Below, in pieces: positions 11,462 through 63,190 of a stretch of DNA of 64,000 nucleotides. Source of the stretch: Candidatus Liptonbacteria bacterium (GTDB taxonomy: Bacteria; Patescibacteriota; Minisyncoccia; UBA6257; 2-01-FULL-56-20); contig VGJV01000001.1 of NCBI GenBank assembly GCA_016867315.1, positions 194,649 to 258,648 on the forward strand, given 5' to 3'. The stretch's first letter is position 1. Every line of letters starts with the position of its first letter. The notes below the pieces were generated by a model. That model did no database searches, was not told the DNA's origin, and saw only the letters and a list, made by a program, of their open reading frames with translations. A program made the translations under genes and the position numbers.

Positions 11462-11562
11462 GAATCCGCCCCTTCCTCCCTGCGGATTTACGGTCAGAAG
11501 GGGCGGATTCTCTGTGGGTCACCGAGCAGTAGGGCTATTGCGTTACGAGAATCCCCTCCCAT
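11462..11562. repeat. structured intergenic repeat element, copy E (14-bp perfect hairpin arms + conserved GCTAT..CGAGAATCCCC module)
   Basis: GAATCCGCCCCTTC...GAAGGGGCGGATTC hairpin (11462-11510), then GCTATTGCGTTACGAGAATCCCCTCC, related to copies at 27204, 28395, 36771, 42640, 57759 and 63128. Confidence 0.5.
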
Positions 11563-11613
11563 ACACTCCGTTACCGTAAGCCTTTTTATTTGGGGAGATG
11601 GTAGAATAAGGTT

Positions 11614-11910
11614 ATGACTTGGAAGAAATGGCCGTATTGGTTGCGAGGAGGGGTGATTGGGGGAGTGATTGCTCTTATTTCCTCAATACTGACGCATATT
11701 TGTGAATTTCAAGGCATAGGTCTTGATTGTGTCCTAGTGGGATTTCCTTGGTTAGTTCTCACCCCAATTTTTTTATGGCAGCTCCCGTTTTTTAACTTTG
11801 CGCTTATTACCTTATACCCTTTAACGATATTAATTGGTATCGGAATTTATTTTTTTCTCGGGTCTTTCGTAGGTAACATCATCGGATATATAAAAAAAAG
11901 AAAGTATTAA
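11614..11910 (+). CDS. small polytopic membrane protein, hypothetical
   Basis: 98 aa, almost entirely hydrophobic helices. Confidence 0.4.
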   Translation: MTWKKWPYWLRGGVIGGVIALISSILTHICEFQGIGLDCVLVGFPWLVLTPIFLWQLPFFNFALITLYPLTILIGIGIYFFLGSFVGNIIGYIKKRKY

Positions 11911-11915
11911 AACTG

Positions 11916-11962
11916 AAAGCCTTGTCTGCGGCGCAGACAAGGCTTCGTGATTTATTTCTTTT
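11916..11962. terminator. bidirectional intrinsic terminator between convergent genes
   Basis: AAAGCCTTGTCTGCG.GCGCAGACAAGGCTT near-perfect hairpin followed by TTTATTTCTTTTG, with an A-run on the 5' side. Confidence 0.6.
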
Positions 11963-11966
11963 GCGT

Positions 11967-14315: not shown

Positions 14316-14514
14316 AACATTCAGAGCAATCTTTTTGAGTTTTAAATTTGTTGGTTAACCCTATTTGGAGCAGGGTTTATCTCTATAAGCAGAATACAAT
14401 GGAATTAAATTAGGTATCAAAATGTAAGCGGCCCTCCTTTGAGAAGATCTCTAGGGAGGGCCTGCTTATTTTCTGCTTTTGCTGCACTCGATTAAGGGTT
14501 TTCGGTTGGGGAGG

Positions 14515-17136: not shown

Positions 17137-17161
17137 AATTTTATTTTCAGATTGTTGAGGT

Positions 17162-17935: not shown

Positions 17936-18175
17936 ACTGCCATCCTTTCTTTTCTATCTAATCTAAGTTGATATTGACTTTTCAATGAAACGAAACGATG
18001 GCAGTCCCACAATGAGTGCGGGATAGGCTCACTTCACAAACAGGTGAAGCGACCCTAGAACCCGCTCAAAGAGCAAGCTGCCACGTGGTTACATCTTACC
18101 ATAGATCTTCTTCAAAGTCAAGATGTGTACAGTAAGCATAATTACTAATTATTAATTACCAATTACAATGACTGC

Positions 18176-19450: not shown

Positions 19451-19451
19451 T

Positions 19452-20458: not shown

Positions 20459-20743
20459 TTAGTGTAAATGCTTTTTTGCAAACGCGAACCCGGAACCTTG
20501 TTTTAAATATTTCTCGAAGGCGAGCGCTTTTGATTTGTCTTGAAAAGCGCAGTGCCATACCAGCTCAAAAGGCGCTTTGGTGCTTGAATAAGGTGAAGAA
20601 CCAGCATTGTGTTCTATAAGGCGCTTTTGCACATTTTCCGTGCAGCCTGTGTAATAGCTTCCGTCCTTAAGACTTTTCAGGATATAAACGCAATGCATAG
20701 AGAAATTATACTGCCCTACTTCGCTAAAGCTACGAAGGGCCAC
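20459..20743 (-). CDS. GIY-YIG nuclease superfamily protein (YhbQ/UPF0213-like)
   Basis: 'VYILKSLKDGSYYTGCTENVQKRLIEHN' is a canonical GIY-YIG motif; 94 aa; inserted antisense between paralogs 2 and 3. Confidence 0.7.
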   Translation of the reverse strand: MALRSFSEVGQYNFSMHCVYILKSLKDGSYYTGCTENVQKRLIEHNAGSSPYSSTKAPFELVWHCAFQDKSKALAFEKYLKQGSGFAFAKKHLH

Positions 20744-20860
20744 TGCTTCGCTTAACTTCAGTAGTATATATAGCTACTTGCACTGCGAAGCTTTAGCGAA
20801 GTAGTGGTTGTGGAAATCTGGAGTTGAACAATTTAGAAAAGAAGAGATATACTGAACTTA

Positions 20861-25073: not shown

Positions 25074-27197
25074 ATGGCACTCAACAGAAAACAATATTCT
25101 ATAGAAGTAGGAGGGAAGCCTCTCGTTTTTGAATTATCTACGCTCGCGGAGCAGGCGAATTCTTCCGTGCTTGTCCGATATGGCGACACGGTGGTCTTGG
25201 TGACTGCAGTGATGTCCAGCGAAGATCAGCCCTTGGATTACATGCCGCTTACGGTGGATTATGAGGAGCGATTTTACGCCGCAGGGAAAATTATCGGCAG
25301 CCGTTTCGTGCGCCGAGAAGGCCGACCTTCCGAAGAGGCGATTCTCGCGGGGCGGCTTGTAGACCGCACTATCCGACCTCTTTTTGATGGACGGATGCGC
25401 CGCGCGGTGCAGATCGTTGTTACCGTGTTGGCATATGACGAAGAGAATGATCCGGAATTTTTGGGGTTGATGGGAGCGTCTTTGGCACTTTCACTCTCGG
25501 ATATTCCCTGGAATGGGCCTGTGGGGGGGGTGCGTATTGCCCAAATGAGTGACCGCTTTGTGGTGAATCCGATAAACTCCGAACTCAAAGCCGTACCGAC
25601 AACGTTCGAGACGTTCGTGGCGGGTTCTCGCGGGAAGATCAATATGATCGAGCTTGGCGGAATGGAAGCTTCAGAAGCTTCAGTGCTCGACTCATTTAAG
25701 CTGGCGCAGCAAGAAATTGACCGGTTGATTGAATTCCAAGCGGGAATAGTAAAGGAAATTGGAAAATCCAAAGCTTCAGTGCATCTTGCGGAAGTCGATC
25801 CTGCAGTGCGGGCGGCGGTAGACGCTTTTCTCGCCTCTCGTCTCGAAGCGGCGGTGTATCAGCCTACGAAGATGGAGCACTACGCGAAACTCGCGGAGCT
25901 CAAGGCAGCGCTTCATGCGCATATTGCAGAGACTATACCCGACGTGCATCACAAAGTGCTCGAAGAATTATTCGACGGAGCGGTGAACGATATTGTGCAT
26001 AAAAATATTTTGGAAAAAGAAAAGCGGCCGGACGGAAGGGGTTTGGATCAGCTGCGTCAGTTGGGCGGGGAAGTGGCTCTTTTGCCGCGCACGCATGGCT
26101 CCGCACTCTTCGTACGCGGGAACACTCAGGCTTTGGCGGTGACCACGCTTGCAGCTCCCGGAGCCGAGCAGCTTATCGAAACTATGGAGACGACGGGAAA
26201 GCGGCGCTTTATGCTCCACTACAACTTCCCGCATTTTTCGGTGGGAGAAACAGGACGCATGGGGAGTCCCGGCCGACGTGAAATCGGGCATGGGAATTTG
26301 GCGCGGAAAGCCGTAGAGTCTTTGATTCCCACGGAAGAAACGTTTCCGTATACGATCCGAGTAGTGTCCGAGATCCTTTCTTCAAACGGGTCTTCGTCTA
26401 TGGCTACGGTGTGTGCCTCTATTATGTCCCTCCTCGATGCCGGAGTGCCTTTGAAAAAGATGGCCGCGGGAATCGCTATGGGGCTCATGATGGAAGATAG
26501 CAAAGAGCAAATAGCCAATGGCGCATCGCCTAAGTTTAAAGTGCTTACGGACATCCAAGGTCCCGAGGATCATCATGGAGATATGGATTTCAAAGTGGCA
26601 GGGACCGACACGGGAATTACGGCCCTTCAGATGGATGTGAAAGTGGATGGGCTCACTCTCGAAATTCTTGAGAAGGCACTTTCCCAGGCTCGCAAAGCTC
26701 GCCTCGAAATTTTAAATGTCATGCAACAGGTTATTAAAGAGCCTCGGACGGCACTTTCGCCCCACGCTCCTGCGGTCATCCCCGTGAGAATCGATCCGGA
26801 GAAGATCGGCCTTTTGATCGGACCGGGAGGCAAAACCATCAACGGCATGATTAAGAAATTCGAGTTAGCAACGATTGACGTCGAAGACGACGGCCGAGTG
26901 TTTGTGGCGGGGCCGGTGCGGGCGAATGTAGAAGCCGCAGCGGTAGAAATCCGGGCCCTTACTCGCGAAATCAAAGTGGGAGAAATTGTGGAAGGCACGG
27001 TAATAAAAATTCTCGATTTTGGAGCGATTGTGGATTTGGGAGGAGGGAAAGACGGCATGATTCACGTTTCCGAACTTAAGAATGGGTTTGTAAAAACTGT
27101 TGCCGAAGTCCTCAAGGTTGGGGACTTCGTGCGTGCGAAAGTGATTCGAGCAGAGGACGACAGAATAGGGTTGTCTTTGAAGCAGCTCCAGGGCTAG
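25074..27197 (+). CDS. pnp: polyribonucleotide nucleotidyltransferase (PNPase)
   Basis: Two RNase-PH domains, then KH and S1 C-terminal domains ('IGPGGKTINGMIKKF', 'GTVIKILDFGAIVDLGGGKDGMIHVSEL'); 707 aa. Confidence 0.95.
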   Translation: MALNRKQYSIEVGGKPLVFELSTLAEQANSSVLVRYGDTVVLVTAVMSSEDQPLDYMPLTVDYEERFYAAGKIIGSRFVRREGRPSEEAILAGRLVDRTIRPLFDGRMRRAVQIVVTVLAYDEENDPEFLGLMGASLALSLSDIPWNGPVGGVRIAQMSDRFVVNPINSELKAVPTTFETFVAGSRGKINMIELGGMEASEASVLDSFKLAQQEIDRLIEFQAGIVKEIGKSKASVHLAEVDPAVRAAVDAFLASRLEAAVYQPTKMEHYAKLAELKAALHAHIAETIPDVHHKVLEELFDGAVNDIVHKNILEKEKRPDGRGLDQLRQLGGEVALLPRTHGSALFVRGNTQALAVTTLAAPGAEQLIETMETTGKRRFMLHYNFPHFSVGETGRMGSPGRREIGHGNLARKAVESLIPTEETFPYTIRVVSEILSSNGSSSMATVCASIMSLLDAGVPLKKMAAGIAMGLMMEDSKEQIANGASPKFKVLTDIQGPEDHHGDMDFKVAGTDTGITALQMDVKVDGLTLEILEKALSQARKARLEILNVMQQVIKEPRTALSPHAPAVIPVRIDPEKIGLLIGPGGKTINGMIKKFELATIDVEDDGRVFVAGPVRANVEAAAVEIRALTREIKVGEIVEGTVIKILDFGAIVDLGGGKDGMIHVSELKNGFVKTVAEVLKVGDFVRAKVIRAEDDRIGLSLKQLQG

Positions 27198-27203
27198 AAT
27201 TTT

Positions 27204-27303
27204 CCGCACTTCGCAGAGTACTGCGACCCGGGTTTTTCGTTCTCGAAAATCCCTCTTACTCCCGCCGTCGCGGTCCGTACGGTCGCAGTATCACTGCGAA
27301 TTG
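27204..27303. repeat. structured intergenic repeat element, copy D (composite)
   Basis: Inverted arms AGTACTGCGAC...GTCGCAGTA enclose 'CGTTCTCGAAAATCCCTC...CCGCCGTCGCGGTCCG', with a CACTGCGAA tail. Related to copies C and G. Confidence 0.45.
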
Positions 27304-27377
27304 CTTATTCTGGAGCTACTTAAATTTGGATTTTGTGATTTGAAATTAGCCAATTTTGCCTGTGGTAAAATTGACTT

Positions 27378-28364
27378 ATGGAACTCGGACCCCCATCTTC
27401 CTCAACTAACTCCAATTCGCCTATCCCGCCGTTAGTACCCACTCCGCCTGCGGAGGTTTTTATTCGCACTATGGCGTCCGATTTACAGTCTCTTCGCGCG
27501 AGTGGAGGAGTACGACCCAAATCGGAACGTATCGTATTATCCAAACCCGCCGAGAACGAGCAGCCTCGGATTTCGTGGCTGGCCTCAAAAAATATTGAAG
27601 TGAAATGGCTTTTTGTAGCAGGGGGCGCAATCCTCATGCTCGGAGCGCTCTTGGTGTATGGGTTTAACCGATTTTCGGTGCCTTTTCCTTTCGGAGGGGG
27701 ACTCTCCGGTGCAGTTGCTACTTCTACCGCTGCAGAGGAGGAACTCGCTTTTGCTACTTCTTCGGTGCCGCAGGAACGGCCTAGCCTCCAAAAAGGGATT
27801 TTTCGTAAACCTTTAGACAGGTCTGCGTCTTTTATTGCGGCGCAGGTGGCGCAAAATATTACTGAACTTAAAACTCCGGTACAGCGGTTGCGGGAAGCTT
27901 TAGAAGCTTTGCCTGCACCTTCGGCTTCCTCGACTCTCGTCGAGATGCTTCCTATAGGCGAAAGCGGCGAACCTGTTTCCCTTTCGGAATATTTTACACT
28001 TCTGGATTTGGATGTATTTAACTCCGGATTTCTCGCCACTCACTTTGAGGGGCGGTTTGGGATGTTTGTGTATCGGGATAAAAAAGGCTGGTGGCCGGGA
28101 TATGTATTGGCTTTGAAACCCGGCGAGAATTGGCTTTTCCTTAAAGAAGAAATGGCTGCGCTCGAAGAATCCCCCAATCTTTCTAACTTTTTCCTTACTG
28201 CTCCCGGGAGTCCCAAATCTAATTTCTTAGATGCCCGCATCGGAGATGTGTCGGCGCGAGAGATCCTTTGGGCAGATGGACGATTTATTTATGGCTGGTT
28301 CCGGGGATATTTAGTTTTGAGCACGTCGCAAGCAGGGTTGGAGGCGGTGTTGCCGCGATTGTAA
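27378..28364 (+). CDS. hypothetical single-TM membrane protein
   Basis: 328 aa; TM 'WLFVAGGAILMLGALLVYGF' then an extracytoplasmic domain; no motif recognised. Confidence 0.45.
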   Translation: MELGPPSSSTNSNSPIPPLVPTPPAEVFIRTMASDLQSLRASGGVRPKSERIVLSKPAENEQPRISWLASKNIEVKWLFVAGGAILMLGALLVYGFNRFSVPFPFGGGLSGAVATSTAAEEELAFATSSVPQERPSLQKGIFRKPLDRSASFIAAQVAQNITELKTPVQRLREALEALPAPSASSTLVEMLPIGESGEPVSLSEYFTLLDLDVFNSGFLATHFEGRFGMFVYRDKKGWWPGYVLALKPGENWLFLKEEMAALEESPNLSNFFLTAPGSPKSNFLDARIGDVSAREILWADGRFIYGWFRGYLVLSTSQAGLEAVLPRL

Positions 28365-28394
28365 GCCTCGGCGTAGGTTCACATGATTCGGGGA

Positions 28395-28460
28395 TGCGGT
28401 TTTCGGCTTGTTGCCGAAACCGCTATGCTCTCACGCCGCCGCGTTCCGAGAATCCCCTCA
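28395..28460. repeat. structured intergenic repeat element, copy A
   Basis: GCGGTTTTCGGCTTGTTGCCGAAACCGC hairpin, then TATGCTCTCACGCCGCCGCGTTCCGAGAATCCCCTC; 80-90% identical to copy B at 63128. Confidence 0.55.
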
Positions 28461-28481
28461 TCACGCGAACCTGACGCTTCT

Positions 28482-29516
28482 TTATTCTTCTTTTCCTGTT
28501 TCTTCTCCGACAGTCGCTCCTTCTTTTACTGCGTGGGCGGTTTTGGTTTTGATCGCGTTCAATAATTTTTTATCTTCCTTGAGCTTGGTGCGCACCGCAT
28601 CGAAACCGGTACCCAAGCGTTCGCCTTCGAAGGTGTAGCTTGCGCCTGATTTGGAGACAGTGCCATATCGCACGGCAGCGTTTAACACGTCTGCTTCGTA
28701 AGAAATTCCTTCGTTAAACATGATGTCGAATTCTGCGGTGCGGAAGGGAGGCGCCACTTTATTTTTCACTACTTTGGTTTTGACACGGCTGCCAATCACC
28801 GCTTCTCCTTTTTTGACTTGGGCGATGCGGCGGACATCAAGTCGAACCGAAGCGGCGAACTTGAGCGCCATTCCTCCGGGGGTGGTTTCGGGATTTCCAA
28901 ACATCACGCCGATTTTCATGCGCAATTGATTGATGAAGATCACGAGCGTTTGAGTTTGATTCGCGATGGCGGTGAGCTTTCGCAAGGCTTGCGCCATCAT
29001 ACGGGCTTGGCGGCCCACATGCTGGTCGCCCATTTCGCCTTCAAGCTCTGCGCGCGGGGTCAAGGCCGCGACAGAGTCTACAACTACCACCGAGATGATG
29101 CCTGAGCGCACGAGGCTTTCCAAAATATTCAGCGCTTCTTCGCCGTTGTCGGGTTGGGAAATTAAAAGATCATTTACCTTTACTCCTAGTCGGGCGGCAT
29201 ATTCCGGATCCATCGCATGTTCCGCGTCGATGAAGGCGGTTTTCCCTCCTTGTCGCTGAGCTTGCGCCACGACATTTAAAGCCAAAGTGGTTTTGCCGCT
29301 TGATTCCGGTCCGTAGATTTCTACAATGCGGCCGCGGGGCAGACCCCCTACTCCCAACGCGAGGTCAAGCGAAAAAGAGCCGGTGGGGACCACGGCCACG
29401 TCCACTTTTCGGGCTTCCCCTAACTTCATAATCGCTCCGTCGCCGAATTTATCGCGGAGCGTGGAGATTAAGTCCTCCAGCTCACCTCCTACTTCTTTGG
29501 TTTTCTTTGGGGTCAT
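28482..29516 (-). CDS. recA: recombinase RecA
   Basis: Walker A '[12 protein letters not shown]' and RecA signatures '[17 protein letters not shown]', 'AFIDAEHA'. Confidence 0.95.
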
Positions 29517-36449: not shown

Positions 36450-36731
36450 ATGGCACGAGGGAAATCAACCACAAATCCAGAAACTGTTTGGCTCATCGTG
36501 GGATTGGGTGTTCTCGCGGCCTTTTTAGTGGTGATGCTCGCGCAGGTTTTATTTCCTTCACAAAGCATTGCGCCTTTGGGAAGGGTAACTGATATCGTGC
36601 CCGAACAGATGGATACGCTTTTCGGATTGGAGGCGGCGGCGAGTATGAGGCCATCGGCACCACCACTTACTGCGGCACAGGAAGTTACGCTTCGCTTACT
36701 CGAAGAGCGGGCGGGGATTCAGAGAAATTAA
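36450..36731 (+). CDS. small single-TM protein, hypothetical
   Basis: 93 aa; TM 'VWLIVGLGVLAAFLVVMLAQVLF'. Confidence 0.35.
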   Translation: MARGKSTTNPETVWLIVGLGVLAAFLVVMLAQVLFPSQSIAPLGRVTDIVPEQMDTLFGLEAAASMRPSAPPLTAAQEVTLRLLEERAGIQRN

Positions 36732-36770
36732 AACGGAAATGTTGCTCACCCTATTCCTTGCGGGGACGTT

Positions 36771-36840
36771 GTCTCCGACCGACTGTCGGAGCAACTATAC
36801 TCTCGGGCCGTCGCCCTGTGAGAACCCCCGCGCGGAACAG
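36771..36840. repeat. structured intergenic repeat element, copy F
   Basis: CTCCGACCGACTGTCGGAG hairpin, then CAACTATACTCTCGGGCCGTCGCCCTGTGAGAACCCCCGCG. Confidence 0.5.
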
Positions 36841-36880
36841 AGTTCGCATTTTCCACAGTTTAATTTGTTATACTGTAATT

Positions 36881-37801
36881 ATGATTTTTAAAAGAGCTGG
36901 GGTAGTCGGGATAGTGGGAGCCGCGGCATTTCTTTTGGGCTCGGGAGCGAGTTATCTTTTTGCGCAGACTACTGCGGGATGGACTGCGCCTACTGCCACT
37001 CCGCCAGGAGGAAATACGGAGGCGCCGGTGAATGTAGGACCTTTTCTTCAGCATAAGAATGGAGGGTTGAGTGTGGGGGGGAATGGGCAGCCACTCAATG
37101 CCAGTGGAACTTTGAGTGTGGTGGGGGATACAAAATTGGGCAAAGATTTGGAAGTTATCGGAAGAGTAAAAGTAGGGCAATCGCTCATAGCTCCGATCAT
37201 ATCTGCGGGACCGCTTTCGCCCGAAGCGCCGCTTTCGTCAGTGGCTTTGACTGTGGGAGGGAAGGTGCAGATTCGAGGAGGGAATCCTCAATCCGGGTAT
37301 GTACTTACTGCCACGGGAACAGATGGTACCACGGAGTGGAAGGCTGCTCCTATCACTAAAATTGTCCCCGGGAGCAACGTGACGGTTAGCCCGGCTTCCG
37401 GAATGGGAGAAGTGACTATTAATGCCATAGGAGGAGTAACCAAGCTGCGAGCGGGATCAAATATTTCTATCGATCAGGAAACTGGGGAAGTTACGGTGAG
37501 CGCTTCGTTTTCAGATAATACGCCTTCTTGGGTGAATAACATTCCATATCCGCCGGGAGGTGGGAAGATTCTGGTATCGAATTCAGAGGGGAGTGCGTCT
37601 TGGCAGGATCCGCTTTCGCTTCCAGAGCTGCGCCCGCGTGCTGCTACTGGCACTGTGTGTGGAGGAGGAACGGACGGGGCAGGGCAGGGATTGGGATCTT
37701 TACCTACTGTGTGGGGAAGTTGTGCATCTCAACGGACGCCGAATTGTGTAAATGCAACTTACCAGCGCGTAGGAGGCAGCGGATTTATTTGTGTGCGATA
37801 A
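36881..37801 (+). CDS. secreted beta-rich protein, possibly tail-fibre/adhesin-like (start at MIFKRAG)
   Basis: Signal peptide 'VVGIVGAAAFLLGSGASYLFAQ', repetitive G/V/T/S-rich beta strands and a Cys-rich C-terminus. The track ORF starts at 36758 inside repeat copy F, which is implausible. Confidence 0.4.
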   Translation: MIFKRAGVVGIVGAAAFLLGSGASYLFAQTTAGWTAPTATPPGGNTEAPVNVGPFLQHKNGGLSVGGNGQPLNASGTLSVVGDTKLGKDLEVIGRVKVGQSLIAPIISAGPLSPEAPLSSVALTVGGKVQIRGGNPQSGYVLTATGTDGTTEWKAAPITKIVPGSNVTVSPASGMGEVTINAIGGVTKLRAGSNISIDQETGEVTVSASFSDNTPSWVNNIPYPPGGGKILVSNSEGSASWQDPLSLPELRPRAATGTVCGGGTDGAGQGLGSLPTVWGSCASQRTPNCVNATYQRVGGSGFICVR

Positions 37802-38475: not shown

Positions 38476-38545
38476 AATAGGATTAGTAATTAGGTAATTG
38501 AGTAATTGGTAATTGGACTCGTAATAGTTAATGGATTACCTAATT
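38476..38545. repeat. tandem array of GTAATT(A/G)G octamer-like units (left flank of four-helix-bundle gene)
   Basis: TAGGATTAGTAATTAGGTAATTGAGTAATTGGTAATTGG ... GGATTACCTAATTACGAGG. Confidence 0.55.
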
Positions 38546-38908
38546 ACGAGGGTTAACCTGTTCTTTTGTTGTTCGGATGTAGTTGTTTAATTTGTGGTGG
38601 AGTGATTCTAACCCTTCAAGCAGTATTTTGTGTGTTTCCATCGGAATGCGTTTTCTTTCGAATAGTACATGTGTCCAGTAGATTGATTCAAGTAGCGAGC
38701 CACGTGCGTTATAGTTGAATTTATTTTTGTCGAGATAGTGGAAACGCCCGAATCCTTCAGCAATATTTGCTCCAATTGAGTCTATTGCGGAGATCCATTG
38801 ATCTCCCATTACCTTTTTGTCTTGCCAATTCAGTTTCTCATACTCTTCCCATATAAGTCTAGAAATCTCTCGAGAGAGTTTATATACCTCGAGATCCTCA
38901 AGTTTCAT
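38540..38908 (-). CDS. four-helix-bundle protein (23S rRNA intervening-sequence protein / Avd-like family)
   Basis: 'LEVYKLSREISRLIWE...DQWISAIDSIGANIAEGFGRF' matches the TIGR02436-type four-helix-bundle signature; 122 aa. Confidence 0.7.
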   Translation of the reverse strand: MKLEDLEVYKLSREISRLIWEEYEKLNWQDKKVMGDQWISAIDSIGANIAEGFGRFHYLDKNKFNYNARGSLLESIYWTHVLFERKRIPMETHKILLEGLESLHHKLNNYIRTTKEQVNPRN

Positions 38909-41181: not shown

Positions 41182-42615
41182 ATGAAAGTAAATCCGCACA
41201 TATTCCGAGGGTATGATTTGCGCGGTTTGGTCGAGAAAGATCTAACTCCCGAAATCGTAGAACATATCGGAAAAGCTTTAGGCACGTATCTCAAGCGCCG
41301 GGGCATACGGGAACTGGTGGTAGGGCGGGATTCACGTGCGACGGGGCCCGCATATAGCGAGGCTCTTATTCGAGGACTTACTTGGACCGGGGCGGATGTC
41401 ATCGATATAGGGATGACGCTCGTGGGGACGTTTTATTGGGCTCAACACTTTTTAGGACGGCGTGGGGGGGCTTTTGTTTCGGCTTCGCATAATCCACCCG
41501 AATATAACGGGTTCAAATTTGCCAATGATTTTTCAGAGACGCTTGTAAGCGATGGCATGCAGGAGTTGCGGCGAATAGTGGAGGAAGAGGATTACGAGCA
41601 GGGGGAGGCTCCGGGGAAATTTTGCCTTCAAGATGTTCGAGAAGAATATTATGCGGATATTCTTTCGCGAGTGAAGCTTGAGGGAGCGCGGCGCGTAGTC
41701 GTGGATCCCACGGCTTCCACTGCCGGTGCGTTGGTCCCCGAGCTTTTGCGGCGCGCGGGATGCGAAGTAATTGAAAAAAACTGCGAAGTGGATTCTTCTT
41801 TCCCATTGGGGGTGGCCGACCCCACGGCAACAGACATTGCAGAGCGGTTGCGCGACGAGGTGCTTGAAGCGAACGCGGATATCGGATTTTCTTATGATGC
41901 TGATGGAGACAGGATCGGGATTGTCGATGAGAAGGGAGGGATCATATGGAACGATGTGCTCGTCGCCCTTTTTGCTCAAGATGTTCTTCAAGAACATCCG
42001 GGTGCGACGATCATGTATAACACGTTGTGTTCGAGGGTGGTGGAAGAAACTATCCGCAATGCCGGAGGGACGCCTTTCATGTGGAGGACGGGACATTCCT
42101 TCTTAAAGAAAAAGAATCAGGAAGTGGGGGCGGCATTTATCGGGGAGCTTTCCGGACATTTCTTTTTCTCCAAAGATTTTTATAACCACGATGATGGTAT
42201 GTATTCCACGATGCGGTTATTGCGCTATCTTACTCGGACGAACCAGACCCTCTCGGAGGCAGTAGCGAAGCTTCCTCAGTATGTTTCGAGTCCCGAGATA
42301 AAAGTGTTTTGCGCGGACGATAAAAAAGCCGAACTTGTCAAAAAAGCCAGTCCGCAACTTCGGAAAGACTTTCCCCAGGCGCAAGTCATCGATGATGAGC
42401 GAGCGGGGGACGGAATCCGCATGGATCTTCCAGATGCGATGCTTGTGGTGCGATATTCGCAGAACGGTCCCTATCTCACCATCAAATTCGAAGGTAAAAC
42501 CGAAGTGCAATATAACGAACTAAAAGGGTACCTTTCCCAATTTCTTAGAAGTTTTGGAGAGATTGATTGGAAGTCGAAGATCAATGTGAATGTAGAGGCG
42601 CTTGGGGTGGTCTAG
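41182..42615 (+). CDS. phosphoglucomutase/phosphomannomutase (alpha-D-phosphohexomutase family)
   Basis: Active-site 'SASHNPPEYNGFKF', metal-binding 'DADGDR' and sugar-binding 'GELSGH' motifs. Confidence 0.85.
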   Translation: MKVNPHIFRGYDLRGLVEKDLTPEIVEHIGKALGTYLKRRGIRELVVGRDSRATGPAYSEALIRGLTWTGADVIDIGMTLVGTFYWAQHFLGRRGGAFVSASHNPPEYNGFKFANDFSETLVSDGMQELRRIVEEEDYEQGEAPGKFCLQDVREEYYADILSRVKLEGARRVVVDPTASTAGALVPELLRRAGCEVIEKNCEVDSSFPLGVADPTATDIAERLRDEVLEANADIGFSYDADGDRIGIVDEKGGIIWNDVLVALFAQDVLQEHPGATIMYNTLCSRVVEETIRNAGGTPFMWRTGHSFLKKKNQEVGAAFIGELSGHFFFSKDFYNHDDGMYSTMRLLRYLTRTNQTLSEAVAKLPQYVSSPEIKVFCADDKKAELVKKASPQLRKDFPQAQVIDDERAGDGIRMDLPDAMLVVRYSQNGPYLTIKFEGKTEVQYNELKGYLSQFLRSFGEIDWKSKINVNVEALGVV

Positions 42616-42639
42616 ATTCGTACTGCATAATTCAGGGAC

Positions 42640-42700
42640 GCTGTCCGCGAGGGGCTCTCCCGGCAGCTATATTCTCGTGCTGTCGCACTGCGAAAATCCC
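42640..42700. repeat. structured intergenic repeat element, copy C
   Basis: CCCGGCAGCTATATTCTCGTGCTGTCGCACTGCGAAAATCCC. Confidence 0.5.
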
Positions 42701-42810
42701 TTCATTATGCAGTGCAAATTACCCTGATTTAATTGACGTATAGGTTCTTGGAGACTATAGTGGGGAGAACCAATTGATACTGCAATTCGGGTGGCAATTG
42801 GGCACTTACT

Positions 42811-43912: not shown

Positions 43913-45202
43913 ATGAAGCGAATTTACTTAGATTTTGCGGCTACTACTCCGCTTGACCCGGCGGTGGGGCGGGCAATGGAGCCGTATTTATATGAAGAGT
44001 TTGGGAATCCAAGTTCACTCCATTCTTTCGGGCAGAAGGCGATTGCAGCAATTGATAAGGCGCGGGAGATGTTCGCTCGAGAGCTTAATGCCAATTTTCG
44101 AGAAATTATTTTTACCGGATCTGCGACCGAGGCCAACAATCTGGGGTTCAGAGGGGTTATAAAAGGAATCAGGAAACAGGAATTAGGAATTAGGCAAAAG
44201 AAATTCACTCCTCGTATCATTATTTCGGCGATCGAACATGAATCCATTCGAGAAACGGCGAAAGACCTGGAACGCGAAGGAGTGGAAGTGATCGAAATTC
44301 CGGTAAGTCGCGAGGGGTTGGTAGATGTTCAGAAATTGAAGAACGCACTTAATGAGCGGACGGTTTTGGTTTCGGTCATGTATGCAAATAACGAGATAGG
44401 GACAGTGCAGCCGATTTCTGCAATCGGCAAAATCATAACCGATTTTAGAAAGCAAATAGCGGATAGCAAAGAGCCAAGAGCGCCATTGGCTATTGGCCAT
44501 TGGCCAATTTTTCACACCGACGCCGCGCAGGCTTTTCAATTTCTGGATTGCGATGTCCAATTTCTTGGAGTGGACCTTATGACTCTTTCGGCGCATAAGA
44601 TTTACGGGCCGAAAGGAGTGGGCGCGCTCTACATGCGGCGAATTGTGAATAGTGAATTGCGAAGTGTGAATAATTCTCAACTCCCAACTCCCACTTCTCA
44701 ATTCTTGAGCCCTGTGATTACCGGGGGTGGACAGGAATTTGGTTTGCGTTCGGGTACCGAGAATGTGGCAGAGATTGTGGGATTTGGCCATGCGGCACGT
44801 CGCGCAGGAGAGCTGCGTGTTAGAGAAGGAGCGCGGCTTGGAGGATTGTGCGAAAAGTTATGGAAAGGAATTATCAAAAAATATCCTCGCGCTACTTTAA
44901 ATGGTGTTTCTGCAAAGCGCTTCACTCGACATTCATCCCTTGCATTGCCTAATATTCTTAGCGTGCGGTTTTCTGATCTGGAGGCCGAAGCGCTCCTTGT
45001 CCGGCTTGATATCATGGGGCTCGCCGCTTCCGCTGGACCTGCATGCAGCAGTCGTTCACTCGAAGTTTCTAACGTTCTCCAAGCAATTGGGCTTACTCCT
45101 AAGCAGGCGCGGGAAACTATACGGTTTAGCCTTGGCCGCACTACAAAGGAGAAAGATGTTGCGCACGCTCTTTCCCTTTTGACTCAGGTTTTTCGGAGAT
45201 AG
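43913..45202 (+). CDS. iscS: cysteine desulfurase (IscS/NifS family; start at MKRIYLD)
   Basis: 'IYLDFAATTPLDP', the PLP-lysine region 'SAHKIYGPKGVGALYMRR' and an active-site Cys loop 'SAGPACSS'. It carries lineage-specific insertions, including an in-frame heptamer-repeat-encoded 'GIRKQELGIRQKK'. Confidence 0.85.
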   Translation: MKRIYLDFAATTPLDPAVGRAMEPYLYEEFGNPSSLHSFGQKAIAAIDKAREMFARELNANFREIIFTGSATEANNLGFRGVIKGIRKQELGIRQKKFTPRIIISAIEHESIRETAKDLEREGVEVIEIPVSREGLVDVQKLKNALNERTVLVSVMYANNEIGTVQPISAIGKIITDFRKQIADSKEPRAPLAIGHWPIFHTDAAQAFQFLDCDVQFLGVDLMTLSAHKIYGPKGVGALYMRRIVNSELRSVNNSQLPTPTSQFLSPVITGGGQEFGLRSGTENVAEIVGFGHAARRAGELRVREGARLGGLCEKLWKGIIKKYPRATLNGVSAKRFTRHSSLALPNILSVRFSDLEAEALLVRLDIMGLAASAGPACSSRSLEVSNVLQAIGLTPKQARETIRFSLGRTTKEKDVAHALSLLTQVFRR

Positions 45203-55501: not shown

Positions 55502-57742
55502 ATGTCTACGAGCGCCTTGCTTCGGGTGGTAAAATCTCTTTTCTACCTTACGGTGGTGGGGGTGCCTCTCTTCTATATTGCGAGGACAGTATACCCCTAC
55601 GGGTTGGCAAAAAGTTTATTTTTCCAGATTGTGGTGGAGCTGCTTTTGGCTGCATGGTTACTTTTGGCATACTATGACAGGCGATTTCGACTTTCTTGGA
55701 CTCCTTTAACTGTGGGATTGGCAGGGTTTGCCGTTTTTTTGCTTCTCACTACTTTTATGGGCGTGGATCCCTGGCGCAGTTTCTGGTCCACTCAGGAACG
55801 AGCCCTTGGAGTTTTCACCATGCTTCATGTTTTGGGATTCGTAGCAGTCACCAGCTCCCTTTTTCGCGTCATACGGCATGAGCCCTTTTTCTATGCCTCG
55901 TTGGGGACGTCCCTTGCTATTTCTCTCCTCGCTTTTCTTCAGCTTTCTATTCCTCACCTCCTTCTTCCCAGCGAGTCTGTGCAGGCGCGGCCAGGAAGTA
56001 CGTTTGGCAATCCTTCGTTCCTCGCCGGGTATCTCACTTTCAACATTTTTCTCGCGCTTTATCTTTTACTCAATTGGATTCGGAAGCGAAGAGAGGGGGA
56101 AGTTTTTTCCCGCTTGGCGCCCTGGTTTTTACTTGTAGTGCTTGCGGCAGATGGATTGGTGTTATTTCTTACGGAAACGCGGGGAGATATTTTGGGAATT
56201 GTTGCGGGTGTTATCCTGCTCCTTATTCTTTTTGCGATCGAACCTCCGCGGATCAAAGGCTTTAGCGAACGACGCCTCTATGTGATTATTTTAGGGGTAT
56301 TAGTTGTGTTAGGGGCATTTTTCTGGATTACTCGGAGCAATTCTTTGTGGGGGAAGGTGCCCGGACTGGGGAGATTTCAAGAAATCTCTCTTCAGGGTGA
56401 ATCTTTAGTTCCGCGGTTGATTGCGCTGGAGGCCGCGTGGAAAGGGTTTAAGGAGAAGCCTTTTTTGGGGTGGGGTTGGGATAATTTTAATATTGTATTT
56501 AATAAATTTTATGACCCTCGGGTGTTGCAGGTTAGCTACCAAGAAACTAGATTTGATAAGCCGCATAACTTTGTTCTCGAGTATCTGGTAGTGGGAGGGG
56601 CTTTGCTTGCTCTCGCCTACCTTTGTGTATTCGCAGCTTTTTTTCTCCAGGCGCGTCGCATTTTCGATAGGCTTTTGGGGAATGTTTTTATTGCAGCGGC
56701 GGGGGCATATATTGTCCGCAATATCTTTATTTTTGAGACGCTGGGCCCTTTGCTCATGTGGGGGCTTTTCTTAGGAGTTATTGATGCTTTATATGTGTCT
56801 CAGAAAAAGGAATTTAGCGTCCCATCCCCGCGAAGCATTTCTTGGGGAGCTCTGGGTTTGGTTTTCCTGCCCGCCGTGCTTCTCTTGTATTTTATAAATA
56901 TTCGGTCCATACAGGCTTCCAATCATCAATTTTGGGGATTTAATTATTTCCTCCATGGGAAGCCCCTCGCGGCAATTCAAAGTTTTAAGAGAGGTTTAGA
57001 GATGTGGAGTCCTTATGGGTGGAACTTGAAACGGGATTATGCGTCGGTAGTAACGGAAGCGTATTTCTATAATCCCGGTCTTATTCCCGACAAGGAGGCG
57101 CGAGAGGCACTACGGGCGATGGAAGAGGCAGTGCAAGAACATCCATTGGATGCTTATTACCACTATGCCTTGGTGGATATGTATAATCAGGTTTCGAATA
57201 TTGACCCTGAAACGCTGCTTCCGGCGGCGGAGCGCGCAGCAGCAACTGCGCTTGTACTCAGTCCGCGGCGACAAGAGGTGTATTTTTCACTCGCCAAGAC
57301 CAAATCTCTTCAGGGAGACAACGAGGCGGCCTTGCAATTGCTTAAAGAAGCCCTTTCCTTTGATCCTAAGGTAGCAGATGCGCACTTTTATTACGGACTA
57401 GTCGCGTACGCTCTCAAAGATCATGAAACCGGGTATCGGGAGATACAAGAGGCTTTGAGCATGGGTAGGAAATGGAAAAAGTATCATGAGCCGCGCGTAG
57501 TCGGAAACTTTTTCGCGGATTCAGGACATCTCGATGAGGCAATCTCTTTATTTGAAACGGCAATTGCCATGGAGCCGAATGACTTAGAGGCGCGAACAAA
57601 ACTTGGAGTGGCTTACTTTATTAAAGGGGAGAAAGGGAAAGCTAAAGAACAGCTAGAAATCGTGAGTAAGCAGTTCGATTTTCGCACAAGCCCCTCCTAT
57701 GCCTCCATGAAGCCAATATTGGAGGCGTTAGGGATACGGTAG
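55502..57742 (+). CDS. O-antigen ligase/polymerase-like (Wzy_C) membrane protein with C-terminal TPR repeats (start at MSTSALL)
   Basis: About 10-12 TM helices with a large periplasmic loop, followed by TPR-like repeats ('ALQLLKEALSFDPKVADAHFYYGLVAYAL', 'AISLFETAIAMEPNDLEARTKLGVAYF'). Confidence 0.6.
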   Translation: MSTSALLRVVKSLFYLTVVGVPLFYIARTVYPYGLAKSLFFQIVVELLLAAWLLLAYYDRRFRLSWTPLTVGLAGFAVFLLLTTFMGVDPWRSFWSTQERALGVFTMLHVLGFVAVTSSLFRVIRHEPFFYASLGTSLAISLLAFLQLSIPHLLLPSESVQARPGSTFGNPSFLAGYLTFNIFLALYLLLNWIRKRREGEVFSRLAPWFLLVVLAADGLVLFLTETRGDILGIVAGVILLLILFAIEPPRIKGFSERRLYVIILGVLVVLGAFFWITRSNSLWGKVPGLGRFQEISLQGESLVPRLIALEAAWKGFKEKPFLGWGWDNFNIVFNKFYDPRVLQVSYQETRFDKPHNFVLEYLVVGGALLALAYLCVFAAFFLQARRIFDRLLGNVFIAAAGAYIVRNIFIFETLGPLLMWGLFLGVIDALYVSQKKEFSVPSPRSISWGALGLVFLPAVLLLYFINIRSIQASNHQFWGFNYFLHGKPLAAIQSFKRGLEMWSPYGWNLKRDYASVVTEAYFYNPGLIPDKEAREALRAMEEAVQEHPLDAYYHYALVDMYNQVSNIDPETLLPAAERAAATALVLSPRRQEVYFSLAKTKSLQGDNEAALQLLKEALSFDPKVADAHFYYGLVAYALKDHETGYREIQEALSMGRKWKKYHEPRVVGNFFADSGHLDEAISLFETAIAMEPNDLEARTKLGVAYFIKGEKGKAKEQLEIVSKQFDFRTSPSYASMKPILEALGIR

Positions 57743-57758
57743 TTCCTCGAGTTTATTA

Positions 57759-57905
57759 TCTCGGACACGGGTACTTTTCTACTGAAAAGTACCTCTCACT
57801 CGCACCGCCGTGTCGGTCCGAGGTACTAAACTCTGCGTCGACCAGATAAGTTTTTTATAGAAAAATGTATGCCGTCGCGGTCCGGATAGCCGAATATGGA
57901 GAAAG
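57759..57905. repeat. structured intergenic repeat element, copy G (nested hairpins)
   Basis: CTCGGACACGG...GGTACTTTTC-tact-GAAAAGTACC...CCGTGTCGGTCCGAG, then 'GCCGTCGCGGTCCGGATAGCCGAATA' resembling the core of copy D. Confidence 0.45.
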
Positions 57906-58064
57906 GTTATAAGGTGGTAGGGATTGCGCCACATTCCATATATTTTGAGAAATTGAGTCAATCCACAGGCAGAGGCGCGAATTTCCCTTGATTTTGCTAC
58001 ACTAGTTGGTACAGTAAATGAAACCCTACGGGGAAAAGGTCGGTGAGTTTCGAGAATCATTTTT

Positions 58065-58340
58065 ATGACTAAAGACGGATTGGTGGAAGCAGTAATGAAG
58101 GCTGCGGAAATTGAGACCAAGGCAGCAGCGCATCGTGCAGTAGAAGCAGTATTCGACACCATCACGAAATCCTTGGGTCGGGGCGAAGATGTGGCGATCA
58201 CGGGTTTCGGCACGTTCCGCGTAGCGAAACGGGCTGCTCGACAGGGACGGAACCCCAAAACCGGGGAAACCATCCAAATTCCGGCCTCGGTGAAACCGAA
58301 GTTCCGCGCCGGAAAGATGCTCAAAGAAGCAGTAAAATAG
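58065..58340 (+). CDS. hup: DNA-binding protein HU
   Basis: 'GFGTFRVAKRAARQGRNPKTGETIQIPASVKPKFRAGKMLKEAV' is the HU/IHF arm signature. Confidence 0.9.
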   Translation: MTKDGLVEAVMKAAEIETKAAAHRAVEAVFDTITKSLGRGEDVAITGFGTFRVAKRAARQGRNPKTGETIQIPASVKPKFRAGKMLKEAVK

Positions 58341-58360
58341 TTTTTATAGTTTTGAATAAA

Positions 58361-58392
58361 ATACCGCCTGTGAGGGGCGGTATTTTATTTTT
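58361..58392. terminator. bidirectional intrinsic terminator between hup and the convergent minus-strand operon
   Basis: ATACCGCC-TGTGAGG-GGCGGTAT followed by TTTATTTTTT, with an A-run on the 5' side. Confidence 0.6.
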
Positions 58393-59134: not shown

Positions 59135-59138
59135 GGGT

Positions 59139-60181: not shown

Positions 60182-60316
60182 AGAAAACGAATAAGGGCGT
60201 CGTTGGTTACATAATCACCAAGAACGCCTTACCCGCCAATATAATACGATTTCTCACTTTTCTCGTCAAAAATCCGTGTAATTGCAGGAAAGAGTTTTCT
60301 CATATAGGATGGGGGG

Positions 60317-60793: not shown

Positions 60794-60811
60794 GCGAAAG
60801 GTTTACATTAA

Positions 60812-60883
60812 GTCCCCATAGCTCAACGGATAGAGCGTATCCCTGCGGAGGATAAGATAGAGGTTCAATTCCTCTTGGGGACA
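60812..60883 (+). tRNA. tRNA-Arg (anticodon read as GCG)
   Basis: Acceptor GTCCCCA/TGGGGAC, D-stem GCTC/GAGC, anticodon stem TATCC/GGATA with loop CTGCGGA, T-arm AGAGG-TTCAATT-CCTCT, discriminator A. Confidence 0.7.
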
Positions 60884-60886
60884 CAG

Positions 60887-60932
60887 AGATAGAAAGTAGA
60901 AAATAGAAAATAGAAAGTAGAAAATAGTAGAA
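60887..60932. repeat. tandem AGAAAATAGAAAGT-type repeat array immediately upstream of a leaderless promoter
   Basis: AGATAGAAAGTAGAAAATAGAAAATAGAAAGTAGAAAATAGTAGAAG, followed by TATAAT (60945-60950) and ATG at 60957. Confidence 0.5.
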
Positions 60933-60956
60933 GACACGAATTGGTATAATTCTTAT

Positions 60957-61211
60957 ATGCAAAAGCGCGGTTTACTTATTGGGGGTTTGCTCGTGATCGT
61001 GGCATTGGGGGTGATTGTTTTCTTCTCTCGTCCGGAGCAATCTTCTCCCGCGCCCACGTGGACTCCGCCGGTTTCCAATCCACCTTCTGCCGAAGTGCAA
61101 GTTCTTCCTGCTTCGAATCCCCCCTCTTCTTCTACCTTCCGAGGGCCAGTGGGTGCCCCCTATATCGAAGGACCTAAAGAACAGCCGCCTACGGGAGCTC
61201 CCGCTCGATAG
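60957..61211 (+). CDS. small membrane-anchored Pro-rich protein, hypothetical
   Basis: TM 'GLLIGGLLVIVALGVIVFF', then a P/S-rich tail; leaderless (TATAAT 6 nt upstream). Confidence 0.3.
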   Translation: MQKRGLLIGGLLVIVALGVIVFFSRPEQSSPAPTWTPPVSNPPSAEVQVLPASNPPSSSTFRGPVGAPYIEGPKEQPPTGAPAR

Positions 61212-61225
61212 AAGTAGAACCTGTT

Positions 61226-61915
61226 TTGGGTTATAATGTCCTAGTGGACACAGGTTCGGATCTTTCGGAACGTATACTTTCTCTTAGGAGAAATCGAAAA
61301 AGCTATAACGAAATAGCTCAAGCTCTTGGCATTTCTAAAAGCACTGTTTCTTATTGGCTTGCAGAGAATCCTGAATCTAAAAAAATAAAGAGTTTCCTTA
61401 TGGCTGAAAATAGGGAAAGGAGTCGCTATAGGATTCAAAAGGTTATCCAATCTTCTCGAGAGAAATGGGAAAAGGTTCGAGAATTAGGGAGAAAGGAAGC
61501 TCATAATTCTTTCAATACGTTTTTGGAGAACCCTATCTTTCTTGTGGGACTTTCGTTCTATTGGGGGGAAGGAGATAGTAAGCCTAAAAACCCTTTGCGA
61601 ATTTCCAATACCGATCCTCGAATGGTACATTTATACATCCGTTTTCTAAAAGAGATTCTTTCTATTTCATCAGATAAAATAAAACTTGGACTTATTCTTT
61701 ACCCGGACATTTCCGAGGTGAGCGCAAGAGAATTTTGGTTAAGAGCTACGGGTTTGGATCAGAATAATTTTTTTAAAACTCAATATATTCGCGGTCGGCA
61801 TCCTACTAAAAGACTTTCTCAGGGGATTTGTATGATAGTAACAAGGAGTATTAAGGAAAAAGCCAAAGTTTTGGAGTGGATTGATATTTTCTATAATCAA
61901 TTTAGAATGGTTTAG
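61226..61915 (+). CDS. HTH-domain protein with possible LAGLIDADG-like motif (homing-endonuclease-like), wedged between two tRNA genes
   Basis: N-terminal HTH 'SYNEIAQALGISKSTVSYWL' and central 'IFLVGLSFYWGEGDSKPKN', reminiscent of LAGLIDADG 'LAGFxDGDGS'. Ends 3 nt before tRNA-Gly. Confidence 0.35.
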   Translation: MGYNVLVDTGSDLSERILSLRRNRKSYNEIAQALGISKSTVSYWLAENPESKKIKSFLMAENRERSRYRIQKVIQSSREKWEKVRELGRKEAHNSFNTFLENPIFLVGLSFYWGEGDSKPKNPLRISNTDPRMVHLYIRFLKEILSISSDKIKLGLILYPDISEVSAREFWLRATGLDQNNFFKTQYIRGRHPTKRLSQGICMIVTRSIKEKAKVLEWIDIFYNQFRMV

Positions 61916-61918
61916 CCT

Positions 61919-61989
61919 GCGGGATTCGTATAGTGGCAGTACATTACCTTGCCAAGGTAAAGGCGCGAGTTCGATTCTCGTATCCCGCT
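61919..61989 (+). tRNA. tRNA-Gly (anticodon GCC)
   Basis: Acceptor GCGGGAT/ATCCCGC, D-stem GTAT/GTAC (with G.U), anticodon stem TTACC/GGTAA with loop TTGCCAA, T-arm, discriminator U. Confidence 0.8.
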
Positions 61990-61993
61990 CTAG

Positions 61994-62392
61994 ATGGAAC
62001 CCACATCTGTAGTGCATAAGGCTTTGATTATTCCTATAAATAAGGAAGGGAAGATTTTTATACAAGATAGGCGGGGATACAAAAAGCCGGACTGGGGATT
62101 TTTCGGCGGCAGTATTGAACAAGGGGAGACTCCGCTTGAAGCTGTACTCCGGGAAACCCATGAAGAATTAGATATTGAGTTGCGCCCAGAGACCCTTTTG
62201 TTTTTAGGTGTATTTTATGCAGCGTGGAATGATCTCGAGAGGCATATCTATTTATTTAAAACTGACAAAGAGCAATTCACTGTGAAAGAAGAAAATGGGG
62301 GATGTTGGCTGACGCTCGAGGAGGCGAGGGATCGAATGGACAGTAAGGAACGCTTTGACGAGATAGCTCGAAAGATCAAAACGGTTCTTTAG
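61994..62392 (+). CDS. NUDIX hydrolase
   Basis: Nudix box 'GGSIEQGETPLEAVLRETHEELDIEL'. Confidence 0.8.
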   Translation: MEPTSVVHKALIIPINKEGKIFIQDRRGYKKPDWGFFGGSIEQGETPLEAVLRETHEELDIELRPETLLFLGVFYAAWNDLERHIYLFKTDKEQFTVKEENGGCWLTLEEARDRMDSKERFDEIARKIKTVL

Positions 62393-62396
62393 GGGT

Positions 62397-63092
62397 TCAT
62401 GCCTTCGCGGCGGCAATGGCAAGAATCTGGCGTGCTCCGTTTTCACGGAGTACTTTCGCGGCTTCGAAGAAGGTAGCCCCTGAAGTAGTGACATCATCCA
62501 GAAGAAGGATTTTGGATTTAGGGAGAAGATCAGGATTTATTACTCTAAATGCTTCTCGGACATTCTCGCGGCGCAGTTCCCATTTTTCCAGCTGACTTTG
62601 AGGATCGGAGTGTTTTATACGCACCAGTACATTTTCAAGAATAGGAATTTGTATGTGTGTCTGAAGCGAGCGAGCGAGAAGCGCTGATTGGTTATAGCCT
62701 CTTTCCCGCTCTCTTTTAGAGGAGAGAGGTATGGGGAGAATAGTGAACGCAGAGAGTTGAAGCGGAACATTTTGAAGGTACTTCGCGAGAAGCGATCCTA
62801 AAACTTCTGCGGCCGCGTGTGCGTGACGGAATTTGAGGCCTTGGATAAGCGCTCGGATGTGGGGGTCTGAATAGTGAGAGGCCGCGCCCAATATATAAGG
62901 GAAGCTTTTGTGGCAGATTCTTTTTTCTTCGGGGATTCGCGCTAAGCATTCTCCGCATCGCAATGTTTGTTCGAGAGAAATAGAAGAGAAACAGGAGAGA
63001 CAAAGGGCATCTTTCGCGGAGGAAATCGCGGTATTGCAGGAGAGACAGCGAGGAGGAAAGAAGAGGTCGAGGAGCGGCTCAAGCATGTTCAT
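62397..63092 (-). CDS. comF: ComF-family protein (double zinc-ribbon + phosphoribosyltransferase domain)
   Basis: N-terminal 'CLSCNTAIS...CLSCFSS...CGEC' zinc ribbons and C-terminal PRTase 'ILLLDDVTTSGATFFEAAKVLRENGA'. Confidence 0.75.
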   Translation of the reverse strand: MNMLEPLLDLFFPPRCLSCNTAISSAKDALCLSCFSSISLEQTLRCGECLARIPEEKRICHKSFPYILGAASHYSDPHIRALIQGLKFRHAHAAAEVLGSLLAKYLQNVPLQLSAFTILPIPLSSKRERERGYNQSALLARSLQTHIQIPILENVLVRIKHSDPQSQLEKWELRRENVREAFRVINPDLLPKSKILLLDDVTTSGATFFEAAKVLRENGARQILAIAAAKA

Positions 63093-63127
63093 AGTATAGC
63101 AACGCTCGTCCTATTCCTCGCGGAGAC

Positions 63128-63190
63128 GCGGTTTCCGACTTGCTGCCGGAACCGCTATGCTCTCGTGCCGCCGCACTGCGAGAATCTCCG
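63128..63190. repeat. structured intergenic repeat element, copy B
   Basis: GCGGTTTCCGACTTGCTGCCGGAACCGC hairpin, then TATGCTCTCGTGCCGCCGCACTGCGAGAATCTCC. Confidence 0.55.

Follow-up and report, generated by a model that had tools for sequence, protein, structure and literature searches.

A structured repeat family at gene ends in Parcubacteria, probably a mobile or recently proliferating REP/MITE-like element

In this study, a family of structured intergenic repeats was characterized in a 64,000-nt stretch of contig VGJV01000001.1 (positions 194,649 to 258,648; assembly GCA_016867315.1) of a Candidatus Liptonbacteria bacterium, which is called the window below and to which all coordinates without a locus name refer. 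The repeats are built on a core of 75-80 nt (74-80 nt by the widest figures) that forms a three-way junction common to all copies. On balance, we favour the view that they are a lineage-restricted, mobile or recently proliferating element that caps hairpins at gene ends and resembles repetitive extragenic palindromic (REP) sequences and miniature inverted-repeat transposable elements (MITEs). Thirteen robust copies were recovered from four genomes within about 286 kb of fetched Parcubacteria sequence; the carriers are this Liptonbacteria genome, a second Liptonbacteria and two Harrisonbacteria-like genomes. The family is previously uncatalogued. Rfam 15 gave no match at the elements at gathering thresholds, a relaxed search (E up to 10) over 27150-28500, which takes in two copies (B and C), returned only noise of 13-15 bits, and nothing relevant on a described element of this kind in the Candidate Phyla Radiation (CPR) was found in the literature.

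The common core and its gain at sites

The core is closed by stem P1, for which examples on the plus strand are GGGGA/TCCCC, AGGGA/TCCCT, GGAGA/TCTCC and ACTGCGACC/GGTCGCAGT. P2, whose sequence is free, forms a hairpin in which a single bulged base is conserved. It is followed by a CTAT(R) junction and then by P3, the conserved hairpin CTCTC-nnGC-[CGnC]-GCnn-(3-nt bulge)-GAGA, after which the chain returns to P1. Below the core lies a copy-specific basal stem made of local flank, which may take in the last codons and the stop codon of the adjoining gene. The sequence CCGCCGTCGCGGTCCG, around which the initial annotation had defined a second subtype (copies D and G), proved to be one allele of P3 plus its bulge that Harrisonbacteria copies carry too, and the subtype is therefore not retained.

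The fold was accompanied by extensive covariation. In the alignment of 13 copies from four genomes, 95% of the cells were paired and 20 of the 24 pairs showed changes on both sides; none of 500 shuffles attained the observed pairing values and slid controls were 37-56% paired, with the qualification that the 13-copy alignments were fitted to the model, so that these counts lean toward structure. An independent MAFFT/RNAalifold analysis of four copies gave 12 compensatory pairs among 24. The covariance analysis proposed at the outset as a check on the hairpins thus came out in their favour.

Evidence for gain was provided by JAHFLF01, a Candidatus Harrisonbacteria metagenome-assembled genome (MAG). 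Its convergent ftsX|fn3 gap measures 258 nt with a copy and 1 nt in two relatives; moreover, its fn3|His_Phos gap measures 160 nt with a copy, and is an overlap or 19 nt in relatives. The three JAHFLF01 cores are 92-97% identical among themselves, and each lies between the arms of its own perfect inverted repeat (19-24 bp), which match nothing else in the fetched sequence. Compensatory drift cannot have produced near-identical cores within unrelated perfect arms. One left arm is the native ftsX 3' end, encoding ..YLRV* (homologous to ..YLKV* in relatives), which the right arm repeats exactly in inverted form; in the window, an arm of copy B was likewise drawn from native coding sequence, at the pnp end. 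Near-identical cores within site-specific perfect arms point either to insertion at the apex of hairpins or to inverted copying of the flank. "Empty" perfect hairpins derived from gene ends do exist, for example at L035:11068-11114, at an fn3 stop codon.

The family has thus been gained at some sites that are empty in relatives. These observations are consistent with a selfish element colonising the few free nucleotides past stop codons, which would have entered either into a hairpin apex or along with a duplication of the flank in inverted form. Once placed, it would form a very stable, branched terminal stem-loop on the neighbouring transcript or transcripts. The likely effect would be REP-like, in that the structure may block 3' exonucleases, or it may act as a terminator-like or processing site, possibly by being cut by RNase III. 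RNase III needs roughly 20 bp of stem, a length that the outer stems here reach.

Copies in the window and carrier genomes

The module GCTATRYTCTCGNGCCGNCGC is the top direct-repeat family of the window, with four plus-strand matches at no more than three mismatches against 0.02 expected from shuffles, which bears out the conserved module of the initial annotation. The four strong cores lie at 28388-28461, 36760-36833, 42632-42705 and 63120-63193. A first covariance model (R1) built from them gave 90-95 bits for its own four copies, and across this model and the later, broader models R2 and R3 the four scored about 80-95 bits (E about 1e-21 to 1e-28). At least seven copies had been claimed. 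The four strong copies, a divergent one (B) and a marginal one (F) were sustained, whereas the claimed copy at 11462-11562 was not recovered by any covariance model. The best pair, 28389-28460 and 63121-63192, is 82% identical over 72 nt, roughly matching the earlier figure of about 85% over 60 nt.

All window copies share one orientation and are given here on the plus strand. Copy B (27206..27304, core 27220-27291), the divergent member, scored 26 bits with R1 (E 1e-4) and 51-53 bits with R2/R3, with a fold z-score of -7.6. It begins 8 nt past the pnp stop (27197), and it has a long P1 (ACTGCGACC/GGTCGCAGT plus TTCGCAG/CTGCGAA), P2 GGGTTTTTCG/CGAAAATCCC and P3 CCGC[CGTC]GCGG; a further outer arm pair joins 27177-27191, within the pnp coding end, to 27310-27324. 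Copy C (28384..28463, core 28388-28461; 88-95 bits) has a 2x2 loop that leads to a short outer stem (TGAT/ATCA). It lies between the convergent stops of a plus-strand gene (27378..28364) and minus-strand recA (stop at 28482; Pfam RecA), starting 19 nt past the former stop and ending 18 nt short of the latter. Copy D (36744..36847, core 36760-36833; 83-92 bits) starts 12 nt past the stop of a small open reading frame (ORF) of 93 amino acids (36450..36731) and lies upstream of a gene whose true start is 36881. Copy E (42616..42719, core 42632-42705; 80-91 bits) begins 0 nt past the pgm stop at 42615 (Pfam PGM), and its outer arms, found by inverted-repeat search, are ACTGCATAAT/ATTATGCAGT. Copy G (63104..63208, core 63120-63193; 89-95 bits) lies between two divergent starts, that of comF (minus strand, 63092) and that of the pilM operon (plus strand, about 63322), and an identical copy is present in loci L021 and L032. 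Copies D and G share extended flanks, with 75% identity over 105 nt (36744-36847 and 63104-63208; blastn).

Copy F (57749..57833, core about 57759-57825) is marginal and divergent, at 17 bits (E 0.002-0.013). It keeps the family architecture, with a fold z-score of -7.6, a long P1, P2 GGGTACTTTTC/GAAAAGTACC and P3 CAC[CGCC]GTG, and it starts 6 nt past the stop of a Wzy_C/TPR gene at 57742. It shares a 14-nt identity with copy B in the blastn comparison, and an additional fragment, GCCGTCGCGGTCCG, is found nearby at 57871-57884. In the same region, a minus-strand ORF of 181 amino acids (57779-58324) stands against a public gene call at 58065-58340 on the plus strand for a 91-residue HU-like protein; the minus-strand ORF is probably spurious.

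The site at 11462..11562 (plus strand) holds no full copy. A 14-bp perfect hairpin that is unrelated to the repeat family (11462-11475 with 11497-11510) is followed by GCTATTGC..GTTACGAGAATCCCCTC, which matches copy C at its 3' end, apart from 12 nt of P3 that appear to have been deleted (19 nt shared, E about 0.005). The site is at best a decayed relic with P3 deleted.

The hairpin begins 0-19 nt past a stop codon in five of the six window copies, copy G being the exception. The earlier statement that all copies sit downstream of genes accordingly stood for six of the seven claimed sites, copy F and the 11462 relic included, and failed for the 63128 copy (copy G) in the comF/pilM divergent region. 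No copy falls in credible coding sequence, and public gene calls leave the copy stretches uncalled. One copy was said to have been swallowed by an ORF, and ORF 36758..37801 does absorb a copy, the JGI gene call starting at 36881. The initial annotation had not described the three-way junction with its covariation, the copy-specific basal stems, the single orientation within the window or the empty orthologous sites.

Further copies beyond the window were found in Liptonbacteria and Harrisonbacteria-like genomes, again with none in credible coding sequence. When 185,579 species genomes were scanned, in an exact-pattern search that would miss diverged forms, true relatives came only from JAHFLF01 and MAG CAZXKC01; most of the 20 loci returned were chance matches and were rejected. 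The sole match of a metagenome pattern scan came from the same organism. A viral pattern scan gave one match, which lies within a coding ORF with the structure broken and was treated as chance. MAG CAZXKC01 (loci L034, which is CAZXKC010000006.1, L015 and L017) is titled Candidatus Saccharibacteria. Its FtsX is 81% identical to that of JAHFLF01 and the gene order is conserved between the two, so the Saccharibacteria label looks wrong. As CAZXKC01 groups with the Harrisonbacteria MAG, the family is, as far as was seen, confined to some members of the Parcubacteria within the CPR. Five related genomes, covered by 21 kb each, yielded no credible copy (L037 and L038 gave only 13-18-bit matches), and these include the three closest relatives (RecA 89-93% identical). 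The RecA of the window itself is identical to a protein listed under Candidatus Liptonbacteria. In a more distant Liptonbacteria genome (L039), the 3' end of recA also has a copy, and its orientation with respect to recA is the reverse of that in the window. The intergenic DNA at pnp and recA could not be aligned with that of the relatives with 91-93% RecA identity, and it gave no insertion boundaries.

Known systems and competing explanations

The element is REP-like in its working and is a member of neither the REP/REPIN, the MITE nor the IS200/IS605 families. The earlier label REP/MITE-like was upheld as regards a structured intergenic repeat family, but not as regards a GTAG head, an inverted doublet, a conserved terminal inverted repeat or a direct duplication. 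As with REPs and REPINs, the repeats are short, non-coding, multi-copy, intergenic, mostly past stop codons, able to form stable stem-loops and lineage-specific; REPs affect mRNA 3' ends. However, REPs are imperfect palindromes of 20-40 nt with a GTAG-type head, often in inverted doublets and linked to RAYT proteins, whereas the unit here is a 74-80-nt three-way junction in which the single-stranded motif reads CTAT(R), or ATAG on the complementary strand, and not GTAG. All 14 copies are single, with no inverted doublet of the REPIN/BIME kind, and neither the window proteins nor the precomputed Pfam annotation of the flanking loci included a RAYT (Y1 HUH). MITEs such as Correia, ERIC and RUP are also small, non-autonomous in appearance, rich in long hairpins and placed between genes. 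They have conserved terminal inverted repeats and direct target-site duplications, whereas the sole shared "terminal repeat" here is the covarying P1 of 5-7 bp, and the long arms differ at each site without direct duplication. IS200/IS605 elements and their ORF-less derivatives share with the repeats a structured single-strand form, a bulged hairpin base and the lack of terminal inverted repeats and duplications. Unlike them, the repeats have no distinct left and right ends, no conserved target tetranucleotide or flank motif was identified, no TnpA (Y1) transposase was in view within the fetched sequence, and the better-folding strand is apparently not on the exposed lagging-strand template.

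Intrinsic terminators are likewise GC-rich stem-loops near stop codons, but the apex here is branched, the stems run to 20-30 bp in all, and no U-tract or T-run directly follows the stem in any of the 3' flanks read. Promoter and terminator scans revealed neither enrichment nor any consistent site within the cores; the terminator scan of four window copies (B-E) called only the weak inner hairpin of B. Moreover, canonical A-tract/stem/T-tract bidirectional terminators occur elsewhere in the window, at 6791-6826 and 58355-58389. Because of these three results, the elements are not the genome's ordinary terminators, and the terminator role suggested earlier is not supported as regards an intrinsic terminator, whose defining U-tract is missing. 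Integron attC sites were rejected as well: they have conserved outer core sites (RYYYAAC / GTTRRRY), a variable centre and cassette arrays, and the layout here is the reverse, with a conserved centre, variable outer arms and housekeeping neighbours. Hammerhead, twister-type, K-turn, purine-riboswitch-like and ssoA CS-6 structures were set aside in a comparison by eye, with no formal test, in which the conserved nucleotides did not fit. The repeats resemble the intervening sequences (IVS) of 23S rRNA in that extra sequence at a helix apex gives a long stem, and such stems are natural RNase III substrates; IVS lie in rRNA helices, whereas the repeats lie in intergenic DNA at the ends of protein genes.

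The leading alternative is a host 3' untranslated region (UTR) element acting in cis as a stabiliser, processing site or non-canonical terminator, selected and inherited vertically rather than mobile. Heavy covariation in every stem argues for it, as do the 11 of 14 copies that are sense to and directly past a stop codon, the presence of a recA 3'-end copy in two Liptonbacteria genomes, and the L039 copy, which tracks the recA strand instead of GC skew. We regard it as rather unlikely, since the orthologous sites of the closest relatives are empty, since one genome holds cores of 92-97% identity within unrelated arms, and since the copies have no U-tract in a genome that has the canonical terminators named above. 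The gene-sense rule has three exceptions, which also count against it: two copies sit in the promoter regions of divergent genes, and a third is antisense to the pair of minus-strand genes around it. So does the finding that the better-folding strand is the antisense one. The predicted RNA energy was lower for the C-rich-strand form in three of four window copies (copy C being about equal) and the predicted DNA energy in all three copies tested. Furthermore, this form has 13 G-U against 3 A-C cells, 8 of the 13 coming from one junction-proximal pair, and full pairing of the outer stems of D and G is confined to the C-rich strand. Such a preference mildly contradicts both a sense 3' UTR and a lagging-template model. 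It would suit trans-acting small RNAs, each copy being a gene of its own transcribed from the C-rich strand; the better RNA fold with its G-U pairs and the outer stems of D and G speak for this. That explanation is nevertheless very improbable, because no promoter-like motif is conserved upstream on the C-rich strand, the basal stems are copy-specific and overlap coding ends, and close relatives have no copies.

The orientation of the copies bears on a replication-linked single-stranded DNA element, which would be either mobilised by a Y1 HUH enzyme in the manner of IS200/IS605 or REP sequences, or used by the host as a signal in single-stranded form, for example for priming. Thirteen of the 14 copies carry the same form on the G-rich strand (binomial p 0.0009 against 0.5), although only 65% of the window genes lie on that strand. 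JAHFLF01 and CAZXKC01 each hold both orientations, with each copy following the local skew, and the copy at L035:12737-12810 does so even though it is antisense to both flanking minus-strand genes. The same preference for the lagging-strand template, and with it a correlation between orientation and replication direction, is known from IS200/IS605 elements (PMC5027513), and the conserved extrahelical base in P2 would also suit this explanation. On the other side, that same 65% confounds orientation with gene direction, and gene-driven nulls give p values of about 0.02-0.15. The single exception to the replication rule, the L039 copy at the recA end, is flipped relative to window copy C. The sequences of P1 and P2 vary among copies, no HUH gene was seen in the sequence searched, and the wobble pairs and energies favour the C-rich strand rather than the exposed lagging-strand template. 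We therefore hold a replication-linked element to be improbable, more so than the 3' UTR element. Chance similarity or ordinary terminator hairpins, for which the form of the copies as GC-rich hairpins at gene ends might speak, are already refuted for practical purposes by four matches against 0.02 expected, 80-95 bits, compensatory changes and absent U-tracts.

Several results weigh against the lineage-restricted mobile or proliferating repeat that we favour. The strong covariation in P1 and P2 means that the fold has been selected for, and purely selfish DNA would have no obvious need of this. The usual marks of transposition are absent: the flanks of 12 copies read directly showed inverted repeats and no direct target duplication, which also settles the check for duplications proposed in the initial annotation; no terminal inverted repeat is conserved across copies, the outer arms being unique to each locus and P1 covarying; and no transposase, HUH nuclease or reverse transcriptase was found in the window (Pfam searches of about 30 window proteins and precomputed Pfam). 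Six same-species assemblies were identical and showed no presence/absence polymorphism. The copy number and distribution rest on the roughly 286 kb of fetched sequence. The missing U-tract speaks against the proposed effect on RNA. The empty sites in relatives and the near-identical cores within unrelated arms nevertheless led us to prefer, with moderate confidence, the mobile or recently proliferating repeat.

Other features and significance

Long perfect palindromes, in which arms of 13-31 bp flank spacers of 0-46 nt, abound in the Harrisonbacteria-like genomes. Examples lie at L005 2607-2656 and 3310-3341, L006 1457-1536 and 4010-4047, L015 5528-5599, and L035 5090-5157, 6671-6746 and 11068-11114. 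Some of these palindromes hold other small conserved centres, of a GCAGGGATACCTTTTACTGC type and a GGGCTCACC..GCGGAT type, and one is built from the 3' end of fn3 coding sequence. A tentative and rather speculative extension is that these Parcubacteria carry an undescribed "hairpin-apex" class of elements, in which several small-core families, namely the 77-nt three-way junction, the GCAGGGATACCTTTTACTGC type of 30-46 nt and the GGGCTCACC..GCGGAT type of 18-25 nt, would sit at the centres of long perfect palindromes whose arms would be inverted copies of the local flank, gene 3' ends included. If such a class exists, it would imply a mobilisation or repair process that targets the tips of hairpins or cruciforms or makes inverted target duplications, perhaps coupled to replication and unlike the known cut-and-paste, copy-and-paste and peel-and-paste mechanisms.

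Other long inverted repeats of the window, at 20716-20804, 38486-38547 and 17936-18005 (spacers 57, 36 and 32 nt; arms 13-25 nt), are without the three-way-junction core. Reverse-transcriptase genes were observed in relatives: in L038 an RVT_1 gene (130-1516) stands beside a bAvd-like gene, in a manner resembling a diversity-generating retroelement, and in L034 an RVT_1 gene (4815-5891) stands alone. The window has a PF05635 gene (23S rRNA IVS protein/Avd-like) at 38540-38908. An Rfam group I intron match at 6538-6753 (plus strand; 50.9 bits against a threshold of 50 bits) adjoins tRNA-Arg(TCT) at 6371-6444 and tRNA-Pro at 6254-6325, and ARAGORN found no split tRNA around it. In addition, AT-rich intergenic runs with a 7-nt period (TAGAAAT / TAGGAAT-like) occur in several Parcubacteria genomes, for example past a tRNA and upstream of the pilM operon. 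They were located at 593-612, 44164-44205, 60891-60934 and 63275-63305 of the window, at about 11037-11066 in L035 and at about 11215-11245 in L024, and they may be promoter or curved-DNA signals.

CPR genomes are small and tightly packed, and their non-coding DNA is little known; the absence from Rfam of a repeat so well structured (20 of 24 pairs compensatory) marks a gap in the catalogue. ORF callers can absorb its copies, as ORF 36758 did, which calls for a correction of annotation, and comparative or transcriptomic studies can use the covariance-model alignment as a ready marker. The repeat shows that selfish or exapted RNA/DNA structures are present at gene ends in these genomes. Moreover, copy-specific perfect stems whose sequence comes from native coding ends suggest that palindromes are made or colonised here by an unusual route which, if confirmed, would bear on transcript ends, genome stability and mobile DNA in these bacteria.

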